Shown piece by piece: positions 32,628 through 43,230 of a DNA stretch of 64,000 nucleotides. Made by a program: the position numbers and the translations under genes. Below the pieces are notes generated by a model. The model made no database searches. It had not been told where the DNA came from and saw nothing but the letters and a program-made list of their open reading frames with translations. The stretch is from Mobula birostris (taxonomy: Eukaryota): positions 156,618,058-156,682,057 of the forward strand of contig NC_092372.1 of the NCBI RefSeq assembly GCF_030028105.1, in the 5' to 3' direction. The number at the start of each line of letters is the position of its first letter. Position 1 is the stretch's first letter.

Positions 32628-33145
32628 GTAAGGCCAAACCAATTACTTGGAGAGTAATTTTAATTACTCCTCCTGAGGGGGAAATAGGGAGTGTTAACTG
32701 TTTTAAGATATATGGTTTTACTTTTCATTAAAGTAACTCATTGCATAGTTTTTCAAATGGAGGGACTAAGGCCAATCAATGGGCAGAGGTGGAATGTGGG
32801 TGGATAGAGAGTCATAGGATGGAGTTTTCCAGAAGGTAATCTTGGATAGGGTGTGTTGTAATGTGAGCATTATTAAAAGTAAGTTTATACTAATTGGGAT
32901 AATGGGGGGGGGGTTCTACTTCCGGTGGCCTTTGTATATAGTGTTCCTGCCATGCCGTATGGGTTGTGAAAGCCTCTGTATATACCAATTGGTTTTGAAG
33001 TTTGAGATAAAGTTGTTTCTTTGGCATGAAGTTGTCGAGTGTGCCTTTTTCAAAGTAGAAGTTGCTACATATTTTTGGCGACAAGGTGAGCTGGTTTTGT
33101 GGATGTGTCGGCACGTTTTTCGAACAGGAGCTTCGCGTTTCAGAT

Positions 33146-33836
33146 GGCTATGTTTGGAACTATCGGGGAATTTCTGGAAGGAAACGAGGACTGGCTGGAG
33201 TATGAGGAAAGGTTGGGACACTTCTTCTGTGCTAATGGAATTGCTGAGGAGGCTAAGAAGCACTCTATTCTCCTGAGTGTGTGTGGGGCAAAGACTTACA
33301 AGCTAATAAGGAATTTAGCCACACCGCGGAAACCGGGGGACATTCCATATGACGAACTGGTCAAGCTCGTGGGGAACCACTACAATCTGAAACCTTCTGT
33401 GATAGTCCAACGGTGTAAGTTTCACAGTCGTTTCAGGAAGCCAGGTCAGTCTGTGGCAAACTTCGTGGCCGAGCTTCGGCAGCTGTCGGAGCATTGTGAT
33501 TTTGGAGCGGTGTTGGATGACATGCTCCATGATCGATTGGTATGCCGCATTAATAATGACGGCATACAACGCCGCCTGTTAGGGGAAACCCCACCATTGA
33601 CTTTCAAGAAAGCCTTAGAGATTGCCCAAGGCATGGAGATGGCTGCTATAATGTCAAGGATATCCAGAAAGGACTGGGGGTGGGGGGGTGGGGTTCGCAG
33701 TCGGCAGCAGTGCACCAAGTCAGGAGGGAGACTGGTAAATAGGCAAAGCGGGTGGAATGTTACCGGGGTGGAGGGACGCACCATGCGAATGATTGCAAAT
33801 TCAAAGATAGAAAAGTGCAGAAGTTCAAAGTGTTAA
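33146..33836 (+). pseudogene. gag: Gag of the outer Gypsy element (frameshifted)
   Basis: MAMFGTIGEF..DWLEYEERL..LLSVCG..LRQLSEHCDFG..DRLV, a Mag-type gag with a remnant zinc knuckle. Confidence 0.85.
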
Positions 33837-33859
33837 GATTAAGCCTGGGCAGGGGAAAG

Positions 33860-35930
33860 CTCAACAGGCTGGGCATTATCGAGCCTGTCCAGTTTTCAAG
33901 GTGGGCAGCTCCCATTGTTCCAACTTTGAAGGCAGACAAAACGGTGAGGATATGTGGGGATTATAAGCTTGTGGTGAATTAGGTCTCTAGGCTGGAGGAG
34001 TACCCATTGCCACAGGTGGATGACCTGTTTGCGACCTTGTCAGCGGGTAAGCTGTTCACAAAGCTGGACACGAGCCACACCTACCATCAGCTGCTGCTCG
34101 ACAAGGATTCAAAGGAGTATGTCACAATTAATACGCACAAGGGATTATTCAAGTACAGTCGCCTGGTGTTTGGAGTGGCGTCCAGCCCTGCCATTTTCCA
34201 AAGGACAATGGACACTTTGCTGCAGGTGATTCAGCACGTAGCAGTGTACCTTGATGATATTTTGATCACGGAGGCTACGGAGGTGGAGCATCTGGCTAAC
34301 TTAGAATGGGAGCTGAAGAGGCTCTCAGACGCAGGGCTGCGGTTAAAACGTGGAAAATGTGTGTCCCTGACATCGAGTATGACTTACCTGGAACAGAAGG
34401 TCACAGCTGAGGGGTTTTTTCCTATGGAGGACAAAGTGAGAGCTATTAAGGAGGTCCCAAGCCCTAAGTCCATCACGGAACTCAGATCATTTTTGGGCAT
34501 GGTGAATTATTATGGCAAGTTTCTTTCTGACCTCTCGAGGGTTTTGACCCCACTGTATAAGCTGCTTCACAATAATGCTAAGTGGCAGTGGGGTGACGAG
34601 CAGAAGAAAGCTTTCAAGGAAGTGAAAGAACTCCTCCACTCTGTGAAACTGCTTGTTCACTGTGACCCAGACAAGGAGATCACCCTTGCATCTAATGCCT
34701 CGCCCTATGGAGTCGGGGCAGTTCTCTCACATGTAATGGAGGACCGTTCAGAGAGGCCTATTGGTTTTGCTTCATGTACCTTGACAGCTGCTGAGAAGGG
34801 TTATTCACAGCTAGACAAAGAAGGTCTGGCCATTGTTTTGCAGTCAAACACTTTCATCAGTACCTTTATGGGCGCGTATTTACAATTTATACGGAGCATA
34901 AACCACTGGTGAGCCTGTTCAGTGAGACTAGATGCATCCCACCGCTAGCTTCAGCCAGGGTACAACATTGGGCTCTTACATTGTCAGCCTACCAGTACAC
35001 TATAGTGTACAGAGCGGGTGGGAATAATGCAAATGCTGATCTACTGAGTCGACTACCTTTACCTGAGACACCTGTTACTACATATGTGCCTCTAGAGACT
35101 GTGTTTTCATTGGAGAGGCTGTCAGAGACACCTGTAAAGGTGACCCAGATCAGGCAGTGGACAGAAAGGGACCCAGTTCTGTCCCAAGTCAAGACTTTTC
35201 TTTTACAAAGTTGGCCCAGAGTCGTGGAAGGAGAGGAACTGAGGCCTTATACCAAACGCAAGGCAGAACTGAGTCTGCAGGATGGCTGCATTTCCTGGAG
35301 GGTGAGGGTCATCGTGCCTCCCCCTGGCCGTTCACAGATTGTGGAGGAAATTCATGAGACTCACCCAGGAGTGTGTCGAATGAAAAGCCTTGCAAGATCC
35401 TACGTTTGGTGGCCAAGAATGAATCAGGATCTGGGGAACAATGTAAAATCATGCACACACTATCAGACTAATCAGAATATGCCACCACCTGCTCCTTTGC
35501 ATCCATGGGAGTGGCCAGACCACCCCTGGTCTAGGCTACATTTGGACTTTGCTGGCCCTTTTATGGGGCAGATGTTTCTTGTAATGGTAGATGCGCATCC
35601 TAAATGGATTGAAGCTCACATCATCAGCAACATCACAGTCCCCTCGACCATAGACAAACTCAGGCAAGTGTTTGCAGTCCACGGGTTGCCTGACACTCTG
35701 GTCACTGATAATGGCCCGACGTTCACCAGTGAGCTGTTCAGTGAGTTCATGCAGTAGAATGGCATTCACCATATTTGGACGGTCCCTTTCCACCCAGCCT
35801 CCAATGGTTTGGCTGAGCGGACAGTTCAGACAGTGAAGGAAGGCCTGAAGCGGCTGACAGGGGATTCTCTTAGCATTCGGCTTTTACGTTTCCTGTTTAA
35901 ATACCGCCTCACGCCACAGAATACGACTGA
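33860..35930 (+). pseudogene. pol: Pol (RT-RNase H-integrase) of the outer Gypsy element
   Basis: WAAPIVP, RICGDYK, FGVASSPAIFQ, YLDD, RPIGFAS, HETHPG, RLHLDFAGP and VTDNGPTFTS, with stops and frameshifts. Confidence 0.9.
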
Positions 35931-36235
35931 CCGCCTGAAGCACCTTCAATAACTCCAAAAGACTGAAGTTGGGTAAAATACTGAAAGGCTTTTATTCGCT
36001 GTACAATACGACCTCCATGCTGAGTGTCTGCCCCTGGACTGAGGGGGAGGGGCAAGGCAAAATCACCTTTATTCAGAAATCTGTGGGAGGAGCCACAGGG
36101 ACAGTCAGCAGAGGGGCGTGTCCAGACAGTTAACCCAGTTACAACATATATATGGTTTACCACATTCACCCCTCCTTTTTTTAAAAAGAGTCCCGCGGGG
36201 TGAAGTGACTGACAATATTTAAAACAAGTATATTT

Positions 36236-38945
36236 ACAGGTTAAGTCTATTAGACGGTCGAGTCCGTCACTGTGATCTACGTAGTACCGGCGGTGATTGC
36301 ACCGGCGATGGCGGTTGTGCTGGCTCCGGCCCGACTTGAGGTGCCAGCACGTTAGGCGTTGGTAATCCCTCGTGCGTGTGCGTCACGCCCGGTATGGGAG
36401 TGTCGTGTGGTGTCTGTGTAGGGCTTGGAGTGCGCCGTGTCTAGTGGGTATATATATCGGTGGATACGGGGTTAATAGTCACCACGGAGTGTTCAGGGTA
36501 GGGGCCTGGTGCTCCTGCGGGCAGCAGGTCGTGGATGGAGACCGTGTCCTCCCGCCCATCAGGTAAAACCTCATGGGCACGCTGGGGGTTCGCATGAAGT
36601 AAGTGAACCCTCTCGACCATCGGGGAGTATTTATTGTTCCTCGCATGTTTCCGGAGCAGCACTGGCCCCAGGGACGTCAACCAAGTTGGTAGGGTTGTCC
36701 CAGTGGTCGACTTTCTGGGAAAAGAAAAGAGCCGCTCATGAGGGGTGGCATTGGTGGACGCGCATAACGGGGAGGGGATGGAGTGGAGTGCCTCGGGAAG
36801 GACCTCCTGCCAGCGGGAGACTGGCAGTCCCTTTGACCTGAGGGCTAAGAGTGTGGCTTTCCACACCGTGGCATTCTCCTTCTCCACCTGTCCATTCCCC
36901 CGGGGATTATATCTTGTGGTCCTACTAGTTGCAATTCCCCTAGCCAGTGCACATTGGCGCAGCTCGTCACTCATAAACGAGGACCCTCTGTCACTGTGGA
37001 TATAACATGGGTATCCAAACAGAGTGAAGAGCTTGCGCAGGGCTTTTATAACTGACGTGGTAGTGGTGTCTGGGCAGGGGATGGCGAAGGGGAACCACGA
37101 GTACTCGTCGATAGCGTTAAGAAAGTACACATTGCGGTCGGTGGAGGGAAGGGGGCCCTTAAAGTCAACACTCAGTCGCTCAAAGGGGCGGGTGGCCTTG
37201 ATTAGTTGTGCATTTTTGGGTCGGTAGAAGCGCAGTTTGCACTCTGCGCAGACTTGGCCGTCCCTGGTCATCGTCCCGATCTCCTCAAGGGAGTAAGGCA
37301 GGTTCCGGGCTTTCACGAAGTGGAAAAGCCGGGTGACCCCCGGGTGGCAAAGGACTACATGTAGGACCTATAGCCGGTCGATCTGCGCGCTGGCGCATGT
37401 TCCCTGGGATAAGGCATCGGAGGGCTCGTTGAGCTTCCCAGGCCTGCACATGATGTCATAATTGTAGGTGGATAGTTCGATTCTCCACCTCAGAATTTTA
37501 TCATTTTTGATTTTGCCCCGCTGTTGGTTATTAAACATCAATGCAACTGAGCACTGGTCAGTTAGCAGGGTGAAACTTTTGCCGGCGAGGTAGTGCCTCC
37601 AGTGCCTAATAGCTTCCACTATGGCCTGGGCCTCTTTCTTCATCGCGGAGTGCCGCCTTGAAGTGTACGGGAGAAGAACGCCACTGGTCTTCCCACCTGG
37701 TTGAGGGTAGCAGCCAGCGCAAAGTCGGAGGCGTCACTCTCTACTTGGAAGGGAATGGCCTCATCCACCGCATGCATTGCTGCTTTGGCAATGTCCCCTT
37801 TTATGTGGCTGAAGGCCGCGCAGGCCTCAGCTGAGAGGGGGAATGTGGTGGACTTGACTGGGGGTGGGCCTTGTCTGCGTAGTTAGAGATCCATTGGGCG
37901 TAATATGAAAAGAAGCCCGGGCGCCTTTTGAGGGCTCTGAGGATGTTGGGAAGAGGGAGTCCAACAGGGGGCACATACGGTCAGGGTCAGGGCCAATGAC
38001 TCCATTCTCCACGACACACCCAAGGATAGCAAGTCGGGTGGTCCTGAATACACACTTGTCCTTGTTATAGGTGAGATTGAAAGCTTTGGCTGCTTGGAGA
38101 AAATTCTGGAGGTTGCTGTCATGATCCTGCTGGTCGTGACCGCAGATGGTGATGTTATCCAGATATGGGAACGTGGCCTTCAGTTGGCACTGGTCCACCA
38201 TCCGGTCCATTGCCCTCTGGTAGACAGATACACCATTCGTGACACCGAAGGGGATGCGCAGGAAGTGATAAAGCCTGCCGTCCGCCTCGAAGGCAGTGTA
38301 AGGGTGGTCCTCCCGGCGGATGGGAAGCTGATGGTAAGCGTATTTTAGGTCTATGGTCGAGTACACCTTGTACTGTGCTATCTGATTGACCATATCCGCG
38401 ATGCGGGGTAGAGGGTACGTGTTGAGCTGCGTGAACCTATTGATGGTCTGGCTATAGTCCACGACCATCTTATTCTTCTCCCCGTTCCGAACAATGACCA
38501 CCTGTGCCCTCCAAGGACTTGTGCTTGCTTCAATGACCCCCCCCCCTGAGCAGCCGCTGCACCTCCGACTTAATGAAGGCTCTGTCCCCCGTGCTGTACC
38601 TCCTGCTTTTAGTTGCCACAGGTTTACAGTCGGGGGTCAGGTTGGTGAACAGTGGTGGGGGAGGGATCTTGAGGGTGGAGAGGCCGCAAGTGGCATCAGT
38701 AGTACGGCAGTTGGCATGATGTTGGGTGGGATGTGCGGGTCGGTGTGTGTGTGTGGTCAGTAGCTGGGTATGTGACGTATCCCTACAAAACTGGGGATTA
38801 ACGACAGTAATTGGTGGGAGGGGCCCATCATACTTCATTGTCACGCTTTTCAGGTGGCTCTGGAAGTCGAGCCCCAATATCACAGGGGCACACAGTTGAG
38901 GCATGACCAGTAACGTAAAGTCTCGATATTCTGTGCCCTGCACCA
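36236..38945 (-). pseudogene. pol: Pol of the inner element (RT, RNase H, integrase; several frameshifts)
   Basis: MVVDYSQTIN, STIDLKYAYHQ, IPFGVTNG, YLDN, EAQAIVEAIRHWRHYL, SVDFKGPLP, IHSDRG and GNGQVEK; ends ..RPSNRLNL*. Confidence 0.9.
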
Positions 38946-40043
38946 CTAGCGTTGCTGCACAACCCCCCCACCCCGGATGTCTGTTGTATGCGACCTGGAA
39001 GCCATGGTGACCCTCTGACTTACCGGCCGTATCACGAGTCCACAATGCTGCGCCGTGTCCGGATGGATAAAACTCTCCGTGCTGCCTGTGTCAAACAGAC
39101 AGCTTGTCCTGCGCCCCTCCACCGGGATGTCCATCATTGACCTTGCGAGCTGGTGAGGAGCGCTTTGGTCGAGGGTCACAGAGGCCAGGGTTGAGTCGCT
39201 GTCTTGGTCCAGCGCAGTGTGGTGCCCCATGATCACCCGTTGGTCGTAGGCGGTGGGAGGGGGCGCTGACCAAGATGGCCGCCTCCATGTCTCGCACGTG
39301 GTGGCGGCATGCAGGGAAGATGGCGATCTCGCTCGCGATTTGGACTTACAGACCTTGGCAAAGTGGCCCTTCTTTCCACAGCTGGAGCAAGTAGCTTGTC
39401 GAGCCGGGCAGCATTTCCGGGGGTGCTTCTCGAGTCCGCAGAAGTAGCACTTTGCGGACTCGCGACTGGCAGCAGCCGAGGTCGATTTGCCGGTGGGTTG
39501 CAAGGTCTGCTGCCGGAGAGCCTCAGAGTTGTGCAGAGCGGCCTCCAGCGTGTAGGCCAGCTTGATTGCCGAACTTAAGGTAAGATCGGCTTTTTCCAAC
39601 AGCCGCTGGTGCACGTACACTGACCTGGTCCCCGTGACGAAGGCGTCTCTCACTAGGAGTTCTGCATGCTGTGCCGCCGTCAGCTCCTGGCAATTGCAGG
39701 CTCGCACGAGCGTCCGTAGGGCCTGGACGAACTCAGCATTTGATTCCCCGGGCTGCTGTTGCCATGTCACTAAGCGATGCCGAGCATAGACGCTGTTTAT
39801 CGGCCGCAGGTATTGTCCTTTGAGGGCGCTGATCGCGCCATCGTAGCTCGGCTGGTCTCTGATCAGCAAATAGACTCGTGGACTGACCCTATAGAGTAGA
39901 ACTCTGCGCTTCGCTACGGGGTCGGTCGCTTTAATCTCCTCTAGGTACGCTTCGAAGCAGGCCAGCCAGAGTTCAAAAGCATTTCCAGCTTCAGGTGTTT
40001 GCGGATCGATGTCTAACTTGTCGGGTCTCAGAGTGTGTTCCAT
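38946..40043 (-). pseudogene. gag: Gag-protease of the inner element
   Basis: Two zinc knuckles (CYFCGLEKHPRKCC, CSSCGKKGHFAKVC) and the aspartic protease motif LFDTGSTESF. Confidence 0.9.
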
Positions 40044-42481
40044 GCTTTAAAATGTACAGCGAATAAAATTGAAGCACCTTCAATAACTCCAAAAGACTGA
40101 AGTTGGGTAAAATACTGAAAGGCTTTTATTCGCTGTACAATACGACCACCATGCTGAGTGTCTGCCCCTGGACTGAGGGGGAGGGGCAAGGCAAAATCAC
40201 CTTTATTCAGAAATCTGTGGGAGGAGCCACAGGGGCAGTCAGCAGAGGGGCGTGTCCAGACAGTTAACCCAGTTACAACATATACATGGTTTACCACACC
40301 GCCCTCCAGCAGAGACGCTGATGGGGCGTAGGCCCAAGTCAAGATTGGACCTGCTACGCCTGGGCATGAAGGCAAAGGTGAAGAGAAAGCAGGAAAAGCA
40401 GAAGGAGGGACACGATCAACATGCGTGAGAGAGACAGTTAAAACCAGATGACAATGTCTATGTGAGAAACAATCAGCAATGGCTACCTGGGGTTATTCTT
40501 AAGCAGAGTGGTCCCGTCTCCTATGTTGTTAAGCTGACTGATGGGCCTGTTTTCCGCAGACATCAGGACCATGTGCGCCTACGTCATGATACCGGCTCAG
40601 AGGCAGACAGTTCCATGGAGTTTCCATTTGTGAGTTGGACTACAGTGGAAGCATGTCCACCAGTGACTTTGCCAGAGAGTGAGACGCTGGCAGAGGGGTC
40701 GGGATCCCCTGAGGAGGACGGACATTCTCACATAGACACACAGACCCCTCTCATCCCCCCAACACCAGACCAACCCAAAACACCATCACCAGCGGTGCCT
40801 GCTGGGTCACCGGGGGTAATGTGCAGATCACAGCGCACTTGTAAACCTCCTGACAGACTGAATCTTTGACGGGAGAGTTCTTTTTTTATTGTTGCTAGAT
40901 TGAATGTTGGATCTGTCACATTTTCCAGATGTTTTGTATTGATAAGCTGTTGCTGAGATACTAGTATAAGTTTTCAGGGGTACGCAAGATAATAATACCA
41001 CTGTTTTTATATCCTAGTGTTTACGTTTGGGGGATGTTGGATTTTAAAGGGGGAGAAGTGTTGTAATGTGAGCATTATTAAAAGTAAGTTAAGACTAATT
41101 AGGATAATGGGGGGGGGGGGTTCTACTTCCATACTTTTTTACTTCCAGTGGGCTTTGTATATAGTGTTCCTGCCATGCTGTATGGGTTGTGAAAGCTTCT
41201 GTATATACCTATTGGTTTTGAAGTTCGAGATAAGTTGTTTCTTTGGCATGAAGTTGTCAAGTGTGCCTTTTTCAAAGTGGAAGTCACTACAGAGTGGTGC
41301 AACACTCACCAGGCATTTTTCTTGTGATCAGAGAGCTGGAATCGCCATGGGCTATAGTGTTTTACAGCAAATTAGTGGCGTTACAAGCAGAACTGAACTC
41401 TCGACTCAGTGATCCTTAACCACAATCCCCATCATTCCCGTCACCAGTACCCTCCCAATTCCATTATAAAAGCCAAATGGTCTGATGCTTCTAATTTGTA
41501 TAAACTGCCCTGTGGCAGGCACTGCCAATCAAAACTACTGGGGAAATGCTGGTGAAATTCAAGATTTTGGTTTCTGTGCAGATGGATCTCCTTGAAACTT
41601 TACAAAACAAAATTTTGCTCGCCATCTCATACAAATGAAACCATGTGTTTGCCCCTTTAAGAGAAAAGATGAAGTGAACTTGAGTATTTCTCATCATCCG
41701 AGAACAACCTTGTATGGCACTTTTGTCACTGTTTCTTTTAGGGATGGTGGATGCAAACACTCTGGACTCTTTTAAAAGTCAGTTCAAATTCTTTTTGGAT
41801 CACATATTTTCATGAAAAGGCTTGTGGCTCGTATAATGCTTCATGCCTTTGTGTTTATCAATAGCAGGACAGAAATTCCACATTTGCAAGGTGGCTCACT
41901 CTAGGATCAGTGTGTCTTACTGAAACTGTTGTGTGGAAAGGTATCTGTTGCAGTGGAAAAAAAAGATCAACCCCATCTTTCTAGTTTATACCCAATCCAA
42001 AACATGAGCAGTCCTATAAAAACTTCGTTTTGGGTCAGTTACCCTTTCATTTTGTATCAGCTTTAATCCCAGCAGAGGTAATTGGCATCTACAGTAATTA
42101 CCCTTTACACATGTCATCTAAATGACTGTGCATTCTCTGAATCCCCTTGCATGTTTGAGCCCCTTGTATAGCCAAAATTATGTATCAATTAGAAGCATAC
42201 TAACATACAAAATCATTATATCACAACAACTTTATAGCGGTCATATTATTCTGTTAAAACATATTAAAATCAGCTCCTGAAATAGTTGATGTTTCATACT
42301 AGAATGATCCTGCGCAAGGAATATAATTGTATGAAGAACATTATTTGTAATTAAAGATGACAAGAGCTGCGACTCTTAAGTATACTGTAGGTAACCAGGT
42401 ATCAATATAAACTTTAATCAATATATTGGAGAAAAAGAAATTGCTGTCATTAATGTTAATTTCTAATCTTGTATATATTGG

Positions 42482-42769: not shown

Positions 42770-43230
42770 ACAAACACGAGGAAACCTGCAGATGTTGGAA
42801 ATTCAAGCATCACACATAAAATGCCGGTGGAACGCAGCAGGCCAGGCACCATCTATAGGAAGAGGTACATTCGACGTTTCGGGCCGAGACCCTTCGTCAG
42901 GACTAACTGAAAGAAGAGATAGTAAGAGATTTGAAAGCGGGAAGGGGAGGGGGAGATCCGAAATGATAGGAGAAGACAGGAGGGGGAGGGATGGAGCCAA
43001 GAGCTGGAAAGTTGATTGGCAAAAGGGATACAAGGCTGGAGAAGGGAGAAGATCATGGGACAGGAGGCCTCCCCCTCCTGTCTTCTCCTATCATTTCAGA
43101 TTTCCCTCTCCCCCTTCCACTTTCAAATCTTTTACTATCTCTTCTTTCAGTTAGTCCTGATGAAGAGTCTCGGCCTGAAATGTAGATGCTGCCTGGCCTG
43201 CTGTGTTCCACCAGCATTTTGTGCGTGTTG
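42770..43230. mobile_element. Penelope terminal repeats in inverted arrangement
   Basis: 42820-42989 is the reverse complement of 43068-43230; both arms carry the hammerhead motif. Confidence 0.85.
42869..42904 (-). ncRNA. Minimal type I hammerhead ribozyme (core intact)
   Basis: AGTC-CTGACGA-A-GGG-TCTCGG-CCC-GAAAC-GTC-GAAT; one mismatch in stem I. Confidence 0.75.

Follow-up and report, generated by a model that had tools for sequence, protein, structure and literature searches.

A chromodomain-less clade of animal Gypsy elements whose primer binding site complements its own LTR

Self-priming, in which an LTR retrotransposon uses its own RNA instead of a tRNA to start reverse transcription, has been shown for Tf1; predictions of it, in the parts of the literature available here, concern chiefly the chromoviruses and a single copia lineage of plants. 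In Tf1, the first 11 bases pair with its primer binding site (PBS), and RNase H cleaves between base 11 and base 12, according to passages of PMC7175516; those of PMC4600332 propose the same for Tj1 of S. japonicus, and those of PMC5341516 state that Tf2 needs a long transcript for self-priming. Similarly, passages of PMC6317226 predict self-priming for the plant Ty1/copia TAR lineage (Houba, Osr-1) and the Tcn1 chromoviruses, the criterion being a complement of at least 10 nt within 0 to 5 nt of the LTR. Reports on Tf1/sushi, Tcn1 and the plant TAR lineage are found in the portions covered of PMC6317226, PMC2864245 and PMC6934838.

The element analyzed here, together with the clade to which it belongs, resembles Tf1 and Tf2 of Schizosaccharomyces pombe and Tj1, as these are described in the passages available, in a PBS that complements the element's own LTR, in a predicted independence from tRNA and in a predicted cut that would free the primer. 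Unlike in Tf1, the primer of the window element is predicted to lie within the RNA and not to comprise its first bases, given promoter-like motifs ∼35 nt further upstream; unlike Tf1, Tf2 and Tj1, the clade has no Chromo or SH3_Tf2-1 match. The TAR lineage and Tcn1 differ from it, on the evidence of the same partial sources, in belonging to another superfamily or bearing a chromodomain, and in residing in plants and fungi. Sushi-type chromoviruses of vertebrates, including the present host, likewise have a self-complement near the LTR end. As a positive control, 3/8 chromovirus-type loci with a repeat pair (L200, L202, and L203) showed such a self-complement of 8 to 11 nt, starting 1 to 4 nt past the LTR end and pairing 167 to 217 nt upstream. 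In contrast with the clade, this shorter pairing lies away from any AATAAA, and L202 was confirmed to encode both Chromo and SH3_Tf2-1 domains.

Anatomy of the element and its leader

The element occupies 4,363 bp on the minus strand (35936-40298) of a 64-kb window, by which we mean the whole stretch of DNA analyzed; features below are on this strand unless stated otherwise. Its two 229-nt LTRs (5′ LTR, TG...CA, 40070-40298; 3′ LTR, 35936-36164) show 3 differences from each other, and the target-site duplication GGCGG lies on either side of the element (left copy, 40299-40303; right copy, 35931-35935). Between them lie gag, which encodes two zinc knuckles and runs into protease (38946-40043, the frame ending early in the window copy), the pol pieces for protease, RT, RNase H, and integrase (36441-39090, with stops and frameshifts and no chromodomain match), and a polypurine tract (36165-36182). 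The order LTR-gag-PR-RT-RH-IN-PPT-LTR, the TG..CA ends and the target duplication are those of Ty3/Gypsy elements, and Ty3 RT is the best match among solved structures (E 3e-47). The insertion site is the integrase region of an older K02A2.6-like Gypsy element on the plus strand (32853-41291), presumably of the Mag type. Like the clade, this neighbor has two zinc knuckles, short LTRs, no chromodomain, and a similar integrase C-terminal ending; unlike the clade, and as a negative control, it has a TGG-type PBS at ∼33077 and a self-complement of no more than 6 nt. Outside both LTR elements, the window also contains a 119-nt inverted repeat (90%) and a further 48-nt pair, at 42808-43230.

No TGG is present in the first 6 nt after the 5′ LTR. 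Instead, a single spacer base (A, 40069) past the terminal CA, the PBS position holds TTTTATTCGCTGTACA (40068-40053), which complements LTR nt 160 to 175 (40139-40124) exactly. A preliminary description of this DNA had claimed a 16-nt complement in place of a tRNA-type PBS, and every coordinate of it proved correct, as did the gag ATG at 40043, 26 nt past the LTR. The LTR segment, a predicted self-primer whose 3′ end would be the cut site, ends in AATAAAA and thereby includes the poly(A)-signal hexamer AATAAA (40125-40130). A second copy of the segment lies in the 3′ LTR (35990-36005), and in every full copy of the element this copy and the PBS form inverted repeats.

The preliminary description had also proposed that the intervening U5 folds and had suggested that the leader be folded computationally. 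In the predicted structure, both 16-nt arms pair, with a mean pairing probability of 0.91 over the 16 pairs, and a helix of GCCUUUCAGUA with UAUUGAAGGUGC stacks directly on this duplex (0.99 for the first inner pairs). The 5′ arm of the inner helix begins at the first base past the primer segment (40113-40123), and its 3′ arm lies in U5 (40074-40085). In the window family, the latter corresponds to LTR nt 214 to 225, past the expected poly(A) site, so that the stacked structure would be possible in the 5′ leader only.

The promoter-like motifs of the earlier account were located as well: a putative TATA-box position at LTR nt 91 to 99 (40200-40208) and an initiator-like TCAGT at nt 123 to 127 (40172-40176), ∼35 to 37 nt before the paired segment. 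Among the family copies examined, the former reads TATAAA (nt 91 to 96) in 63/81 matches; the window copy has an AATAAA variant. Judged by these motifs, the RNA is predicted to start at TCAGT, ∼35 nt upstream of the segment. In relatives, TATA and initiator motifs are scattered and weak. Note that L155, L184, and L128 share a GCCGCCATGTT motif 20 to 30 nt upstream of the segment, located after TCAGT in L184, which we take to resemble a YY1 site. In L147, L151, and L154, a pyrimidine run ending in TTTCAG lies 13 to 21 nt upstream of the segment; we assume this to be similar to a splice or trans-splice acceptor, which could set the RNA 5′ end.

Pairing among relatives and among copies of the family

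Relatives were collected as 80 metagenome loci and 8 loci from genome contigs; a scan of viral contigs found none. The gag start could be placed in 54 loci, 53 of which have at least 60 nt of upstream DNA. In 37/53 of these testable loci, many of them copies of the same few families, we observed a perfect 10- to 19-nt complement of the locus's own LTR, and in 34 of the 37 it begins exactly one base past CA. The remaining loci show no duplex (14/53) or one with a single break (2/53). Most of the 14 have a weakly placed gag start or <135 nt of upstream DNA; L105, L143, L148, and L159 lack the duplex despite adequate gag placement and upstream DNA. As a separate observation, the two arms of L096 are separated by an additional PBS-like copy (L096:138-250), which seems to have arisen by duplication on the spot. 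The closest named proteins are those of rays and sharks (77 to 93% over RT-IN), followed at ∼60% by Actinostola, Trichuris, and Trichinella proteins along with many unnamed ones. Eight elements of the clade (L184 to L191) come from records titled as bacterial MAGs and probably represent host contamination.

For comparison across families, we used a set of 22, consisting of the window family and 21 distinct families selected visually from the positives. With its own LTR, a family shows a match of 15.1 nt on average (minimum, 12), as compared to 4.7 nt over 462 cross-family pairs, only 4 of which reach 10 nt, between two pairs of similar families. In 11,000 mononucleotide shuffles of the LTRs of the same 22 families, the longest match was 11 nt and occurred once. 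The segment ends in TAAA(A) in 20/22 families and is directly followed by RCC in 19/22; upon folding, the duplex is in register in 21/22 and a helix begins at the base after the segment in 17/22. Since the sequences are unrelated among families, it is the pairing and its register that are conserved. A canonical poly(A) hexamer (AATAAA or ATTAAA) stands at the segment end in 13/22 families and in the loop instead in L081 and L084. The proposed burial of AAUAAA by the stem therefore holds for the window element and is common in the clade, but it is not an invariant feature.

Within the family, covariation was not detectable. DNA and gag searches of the 4.0-Gb host genome returned 3,116 and 1,754 candidates, respectively, and 757 normal LTR-PBS junctions were found within one mismatch. 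All 16 nt match in 22 of 71 LTR/PBS pairs; the changes cluster at CpG as well as at PBS positions 15 and 16, where uncompensated variation occurs in 12 and 16 copies, respectively. As for copying of the primer into the PBS, both sides had changed together in 2/71 pairs, both at CpG, and all seven 5′ LTRs with one non-CpG-type segment change (7/7) retain the unchanged PBS base. A genome-wide search for compensation found the tested variant in 3 PBS copies, 2 of them readable and neither with the matching LTR change (0/2), in a test of little power given that 12 LTR variants look independent.

PBS positions 15 and 16 (window 40054 and 40053) show two uncompensated variants, each in one leader subfamily, among the first 100 of the 484 genome matches. 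Hand counts in these 100/484 gave G:A of 29:36 at position 16 in one leader type and A:C of 8:26 at position 15 in the other. This variability suggests an essential duplex of perhaps ∼14 bp. Within the subfamilies, the variants have a roughly 50:50 look and are intermingled on the gag tree. Resolution of a heteroduplex would give such a mix, going by the portion of PMC4549124 available. We rejected the mix as evidence of reversion, as other informative sites were equally incompatible in four-gamete counts (7/71 copies excluded because identity was low or the overlap short); recombination explains it. In normal full copies (L032 to L050), the two LTRs differ at subfamily-diagnostic columns in 8/15. 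These LTR differences and the widely incompatible sites point to what may be frequent recombination or intermolecular strand transfer.

Mirror-image insertions in the host genome

One locus, L031, lacks a 5′ LTR and ends in LTR nt 1 to 175, one T, and an entire inverted LTR. Its truncated left end (L031:4680-4700) has a 10-nt match to LTR nt 156 to 165 adjoining a PBS remnant. A pattern search of the host genome for the junction of an LTR, an A, and an inverted LTR running backwards from nt 175 detected 47 places, as compared to 757 normal junctions and 0 in the control. Palindromes of ∼405 bp, LTR(1-229)-A-inverted LTR(175-1), account for 23 of the 47; they are bounded by U3 ends on both sides and by a 5-bp target duplication, which is exact in 19 and has one mismatch in 4. 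A further 9/47 continue into or through the polypurine tract, 5/47 stop early within the LTR, and the loci of 10/47 are truncated, decayed, or without a target duplication. L173, which continues into pol, is not counted among the 23 palindromes.

Both run-on junctions of full-element length end inside the PBS, and three others end 4 to 8 nt into the polypurine tract. L178, L181, and L182, for which both ends were checked, return to the plus strand and have a 3′ LTR at the end, with the duplication kept. The early stops of the inverted arm (nt 148, 140, ∼139, ∼128, and 93) are spread out and mark no single start site, so that the length of the primer is not readable from them. At three diagnostic columns, the arms of the palindromes show 0.41 differences, compared with 1.3 between arms of other loci; they are identical in 14/22 and differ at one or more columns in 8/22. 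Rare variants are common to both arms in 5/23 palindromes.

The palindromes show that the PBS site is a point of pairing and extension, with no indication as to the source of the primer RNA. Together with the inverted rearrangements, they are likely integrated products of faulty reverse transcription, and we infer that the mirror junctions mark the 16-mer as a working PBS.

Candidate primers and the placement of the clade

Given the anatomy of the element, the one-base register, the conservation of pairing throughout the clade, and the mirror products joined at this very site, we consider it very probable that the window element and its clade prime with their own RNA, in one geometry or another. 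The claim of tRNA-independent self-priming, made beforehand from the window alone, thus gained support from complementarity in a fixed register across families of unrelated sequence and from integrated products joined at the segment. As to the primer itself, our preference, held with some reserve, is for the 5′ RNA copy of LTR nt 160 to 175. That is, the R segment in the 5′ leader would pair with the PBS, a second helix would stack from the next base, and the element's RNase H would, by analogy with Tf1, cut between AAAA and GCCU where the two helices meet, freeing a 3′-OH. Such a primer would lie within the RNA and, provided that transcription starts at TCAGT, would carry a 5′ tail of ∼35 nt; a second function of the stem would be to conceal the 5′ poly(A) signal. 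Plus-strand strong-stop DNA would terminate in a copy of the PBS complementary to its own R region; if that copy paired with its own R instead of undergoing the second strand transfer, backward extension would yield the palindromes and inverted rearrangements. Alternatively, palindromes could result from read-through of the attached primer.

We gave thought to explanations in which the duplex has no part in priming or the junctions none in reverse transcription. One is a primer from the host, be it a tRNA, a tRNA fragment, or another small RNA, with the LTR match being incidental; the PBS, however, holds no TGG. Rfam gave no match at E ≤1, and among 34 distinct tRNA sequences (70 ARAGORN calls), no match anchored at a tRNA 3′ end exceeded 1 nt, while internal ones reached 7 to 8 nt at most, in doubtful intron-containing calls. 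Since this partial screen consists nearly entirely of Lys and Cys tRNAs, which leaves some room for a host primer, the stronger argument against it is that among 22 different PBS sequences, every one matches its own LTR; we consider a host primer extremely improbable. HIV-1 hides its 5′ poly(A) signal in a stem, and the stem described here might do just that while something else primes. The hexamer at the segment end in 13/22 families would fit, as would a hiding arm that is present at the 5′ end only, yet the pairing is just as good in 9/22 families that have no canonical hexamer at the site, and L081 and L084 have theirs in the loop. Moreover, hiding a signal needs no one-base register after CA, which 34/37 loci have, and no other primer site is visible, making this explanation an improbable one. 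Mirror junctions might also postdate insertion, the DNA having recombined across the 16-bp inverted repeat that every full copy possesses or between neighboring LTRs, and the 10/47 truncated, decayed, or duplication-less loci would agree with such events. However, 23/47 have U3 att sites on both sides plus a 5-bp target duplication, the reciprocal junction predicted by an inversion is absent in L031 and L178, and L178, L181, and L182 kept their duplication despite internal rearrangement. We give a post-insertion origin little credence.

A more serious contender, albeit one we hold to be doubtful, is priming by the 3′ copy, whereby the R segment from the opposite end of the genomic RNA, or of a second packaged RNA, pairs with the PBS, is cut or trimmed to AAUAAAA, and primes. 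A primer not removed would then be read through into U3, the polypurine tract, and pol, giving rise to double-stranded palindromes with two U3 ends. The nine run-on junctions favor this geometry, especially the two full-length ones that stop inside the PBS, which would correspond to the start of a used template RNA. In addition, the primer end coincides in 13/22 families with a poly(A) hexamer, near a natural 3′ end, and palindrome arms that differ at one or more diagnostic columns (8/22) would be consistent with it. On the other hand, the arms are more alike than those of other loci (14/22 identical) and have rare variants in common in 5/23 cases, both as a simple fold-back predicts; the three run-ons that stop 4 to 8 nt into the polypurine tract fit a template of strong-stop DNA that still carries a remnant of the primer. 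Furthermore, the stacked inner helix of the window family, whose partner arm lies past the expected poly(A) site, would be possible at the 5′ end only, which is what favors the 5′ copy. A weak point of priming by the 5′ copy would be a long 5′ tail, which leaves a plus-strand stop inside the PBS unexplained. We are similarly hesitant about the composite proposal that a widespread animal Gypsy clade takes as primer its genomic RNA's 3′ end, cleaved at the poly(A) signal and brought onto the PBS, with palindromes as read-through products and an origin independent of the chromoviruses.

With regard to placement, RT-RNase H identity is 25 to 30% to chromovirus-type elements of the host genome and 28% to the Mag-type neighbor. 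In an RT-RNase H tree of 26 rows, including 6 K02A2.6-like ones and rooted on one BEL sequence as a single long outgroup, the clade forms a separate 100/100 branch that is sister to the K02A2.6-like elements at 87/92 (not starred); a grouping with chromoviruses was not rejected (p-AU 0.38). The label "Mag-like" given to the element at the outset is thus that of the best tree, but the alternative grouping stands beside it. Its description as chromodomain-less was borne out, with no match to Chromo or SH3_Tf2-1 at E ≤1 in any of four polyproteins of the clade (4/4). The priming mode would be Tf1-like in a lineage with no chromodomain match; an origin separate from the chromoviruses is conjectural. 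The clade may be one already described, such as Cigr-1 or a MolGy clade, as far as the accessible parts of PMC6238403, PMC8556966, PMC2774666, and PMC3601003 allow; three of its RT motifs were absent from 11 of the 14 supplements of PMC8556966 and 4 of the 5 of PMC6238403, within the portions of these sources covered. Within the full-text listings and passages covered, there was nothing on self-priming in an animal clade that lacks a chromodomain, nor on solo-LTR insertions of palindromic form; both may have been mentioned elsewhere.

The palindromic insertions make up ∼6% of 5′ junctions and form a footprint in the genome that any assembly would allow one to count, turning a priming question otherwise confined to the bench into a comparative one. 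They also show that the integrase accepts DNA with two U3 ends. Both the element and its palindromes would be overlooked or mislabeled by LTR finders that depend on a tRNA PBS or on direct repeats. Were the 3′ end of the RNA to prime after all, this would be a geometry shown for no LTR element in the parts of the literature searched. If self-priming holds true, a clade that lacks the chromodomain and occurs in rays, anemones, nematodes, and further animals would represent a further solution to tRNA-free priming, with an internal primer that ends at the poly(A) signal, and the clade would escape tRNA fragments that target tRNA-type PBSs.
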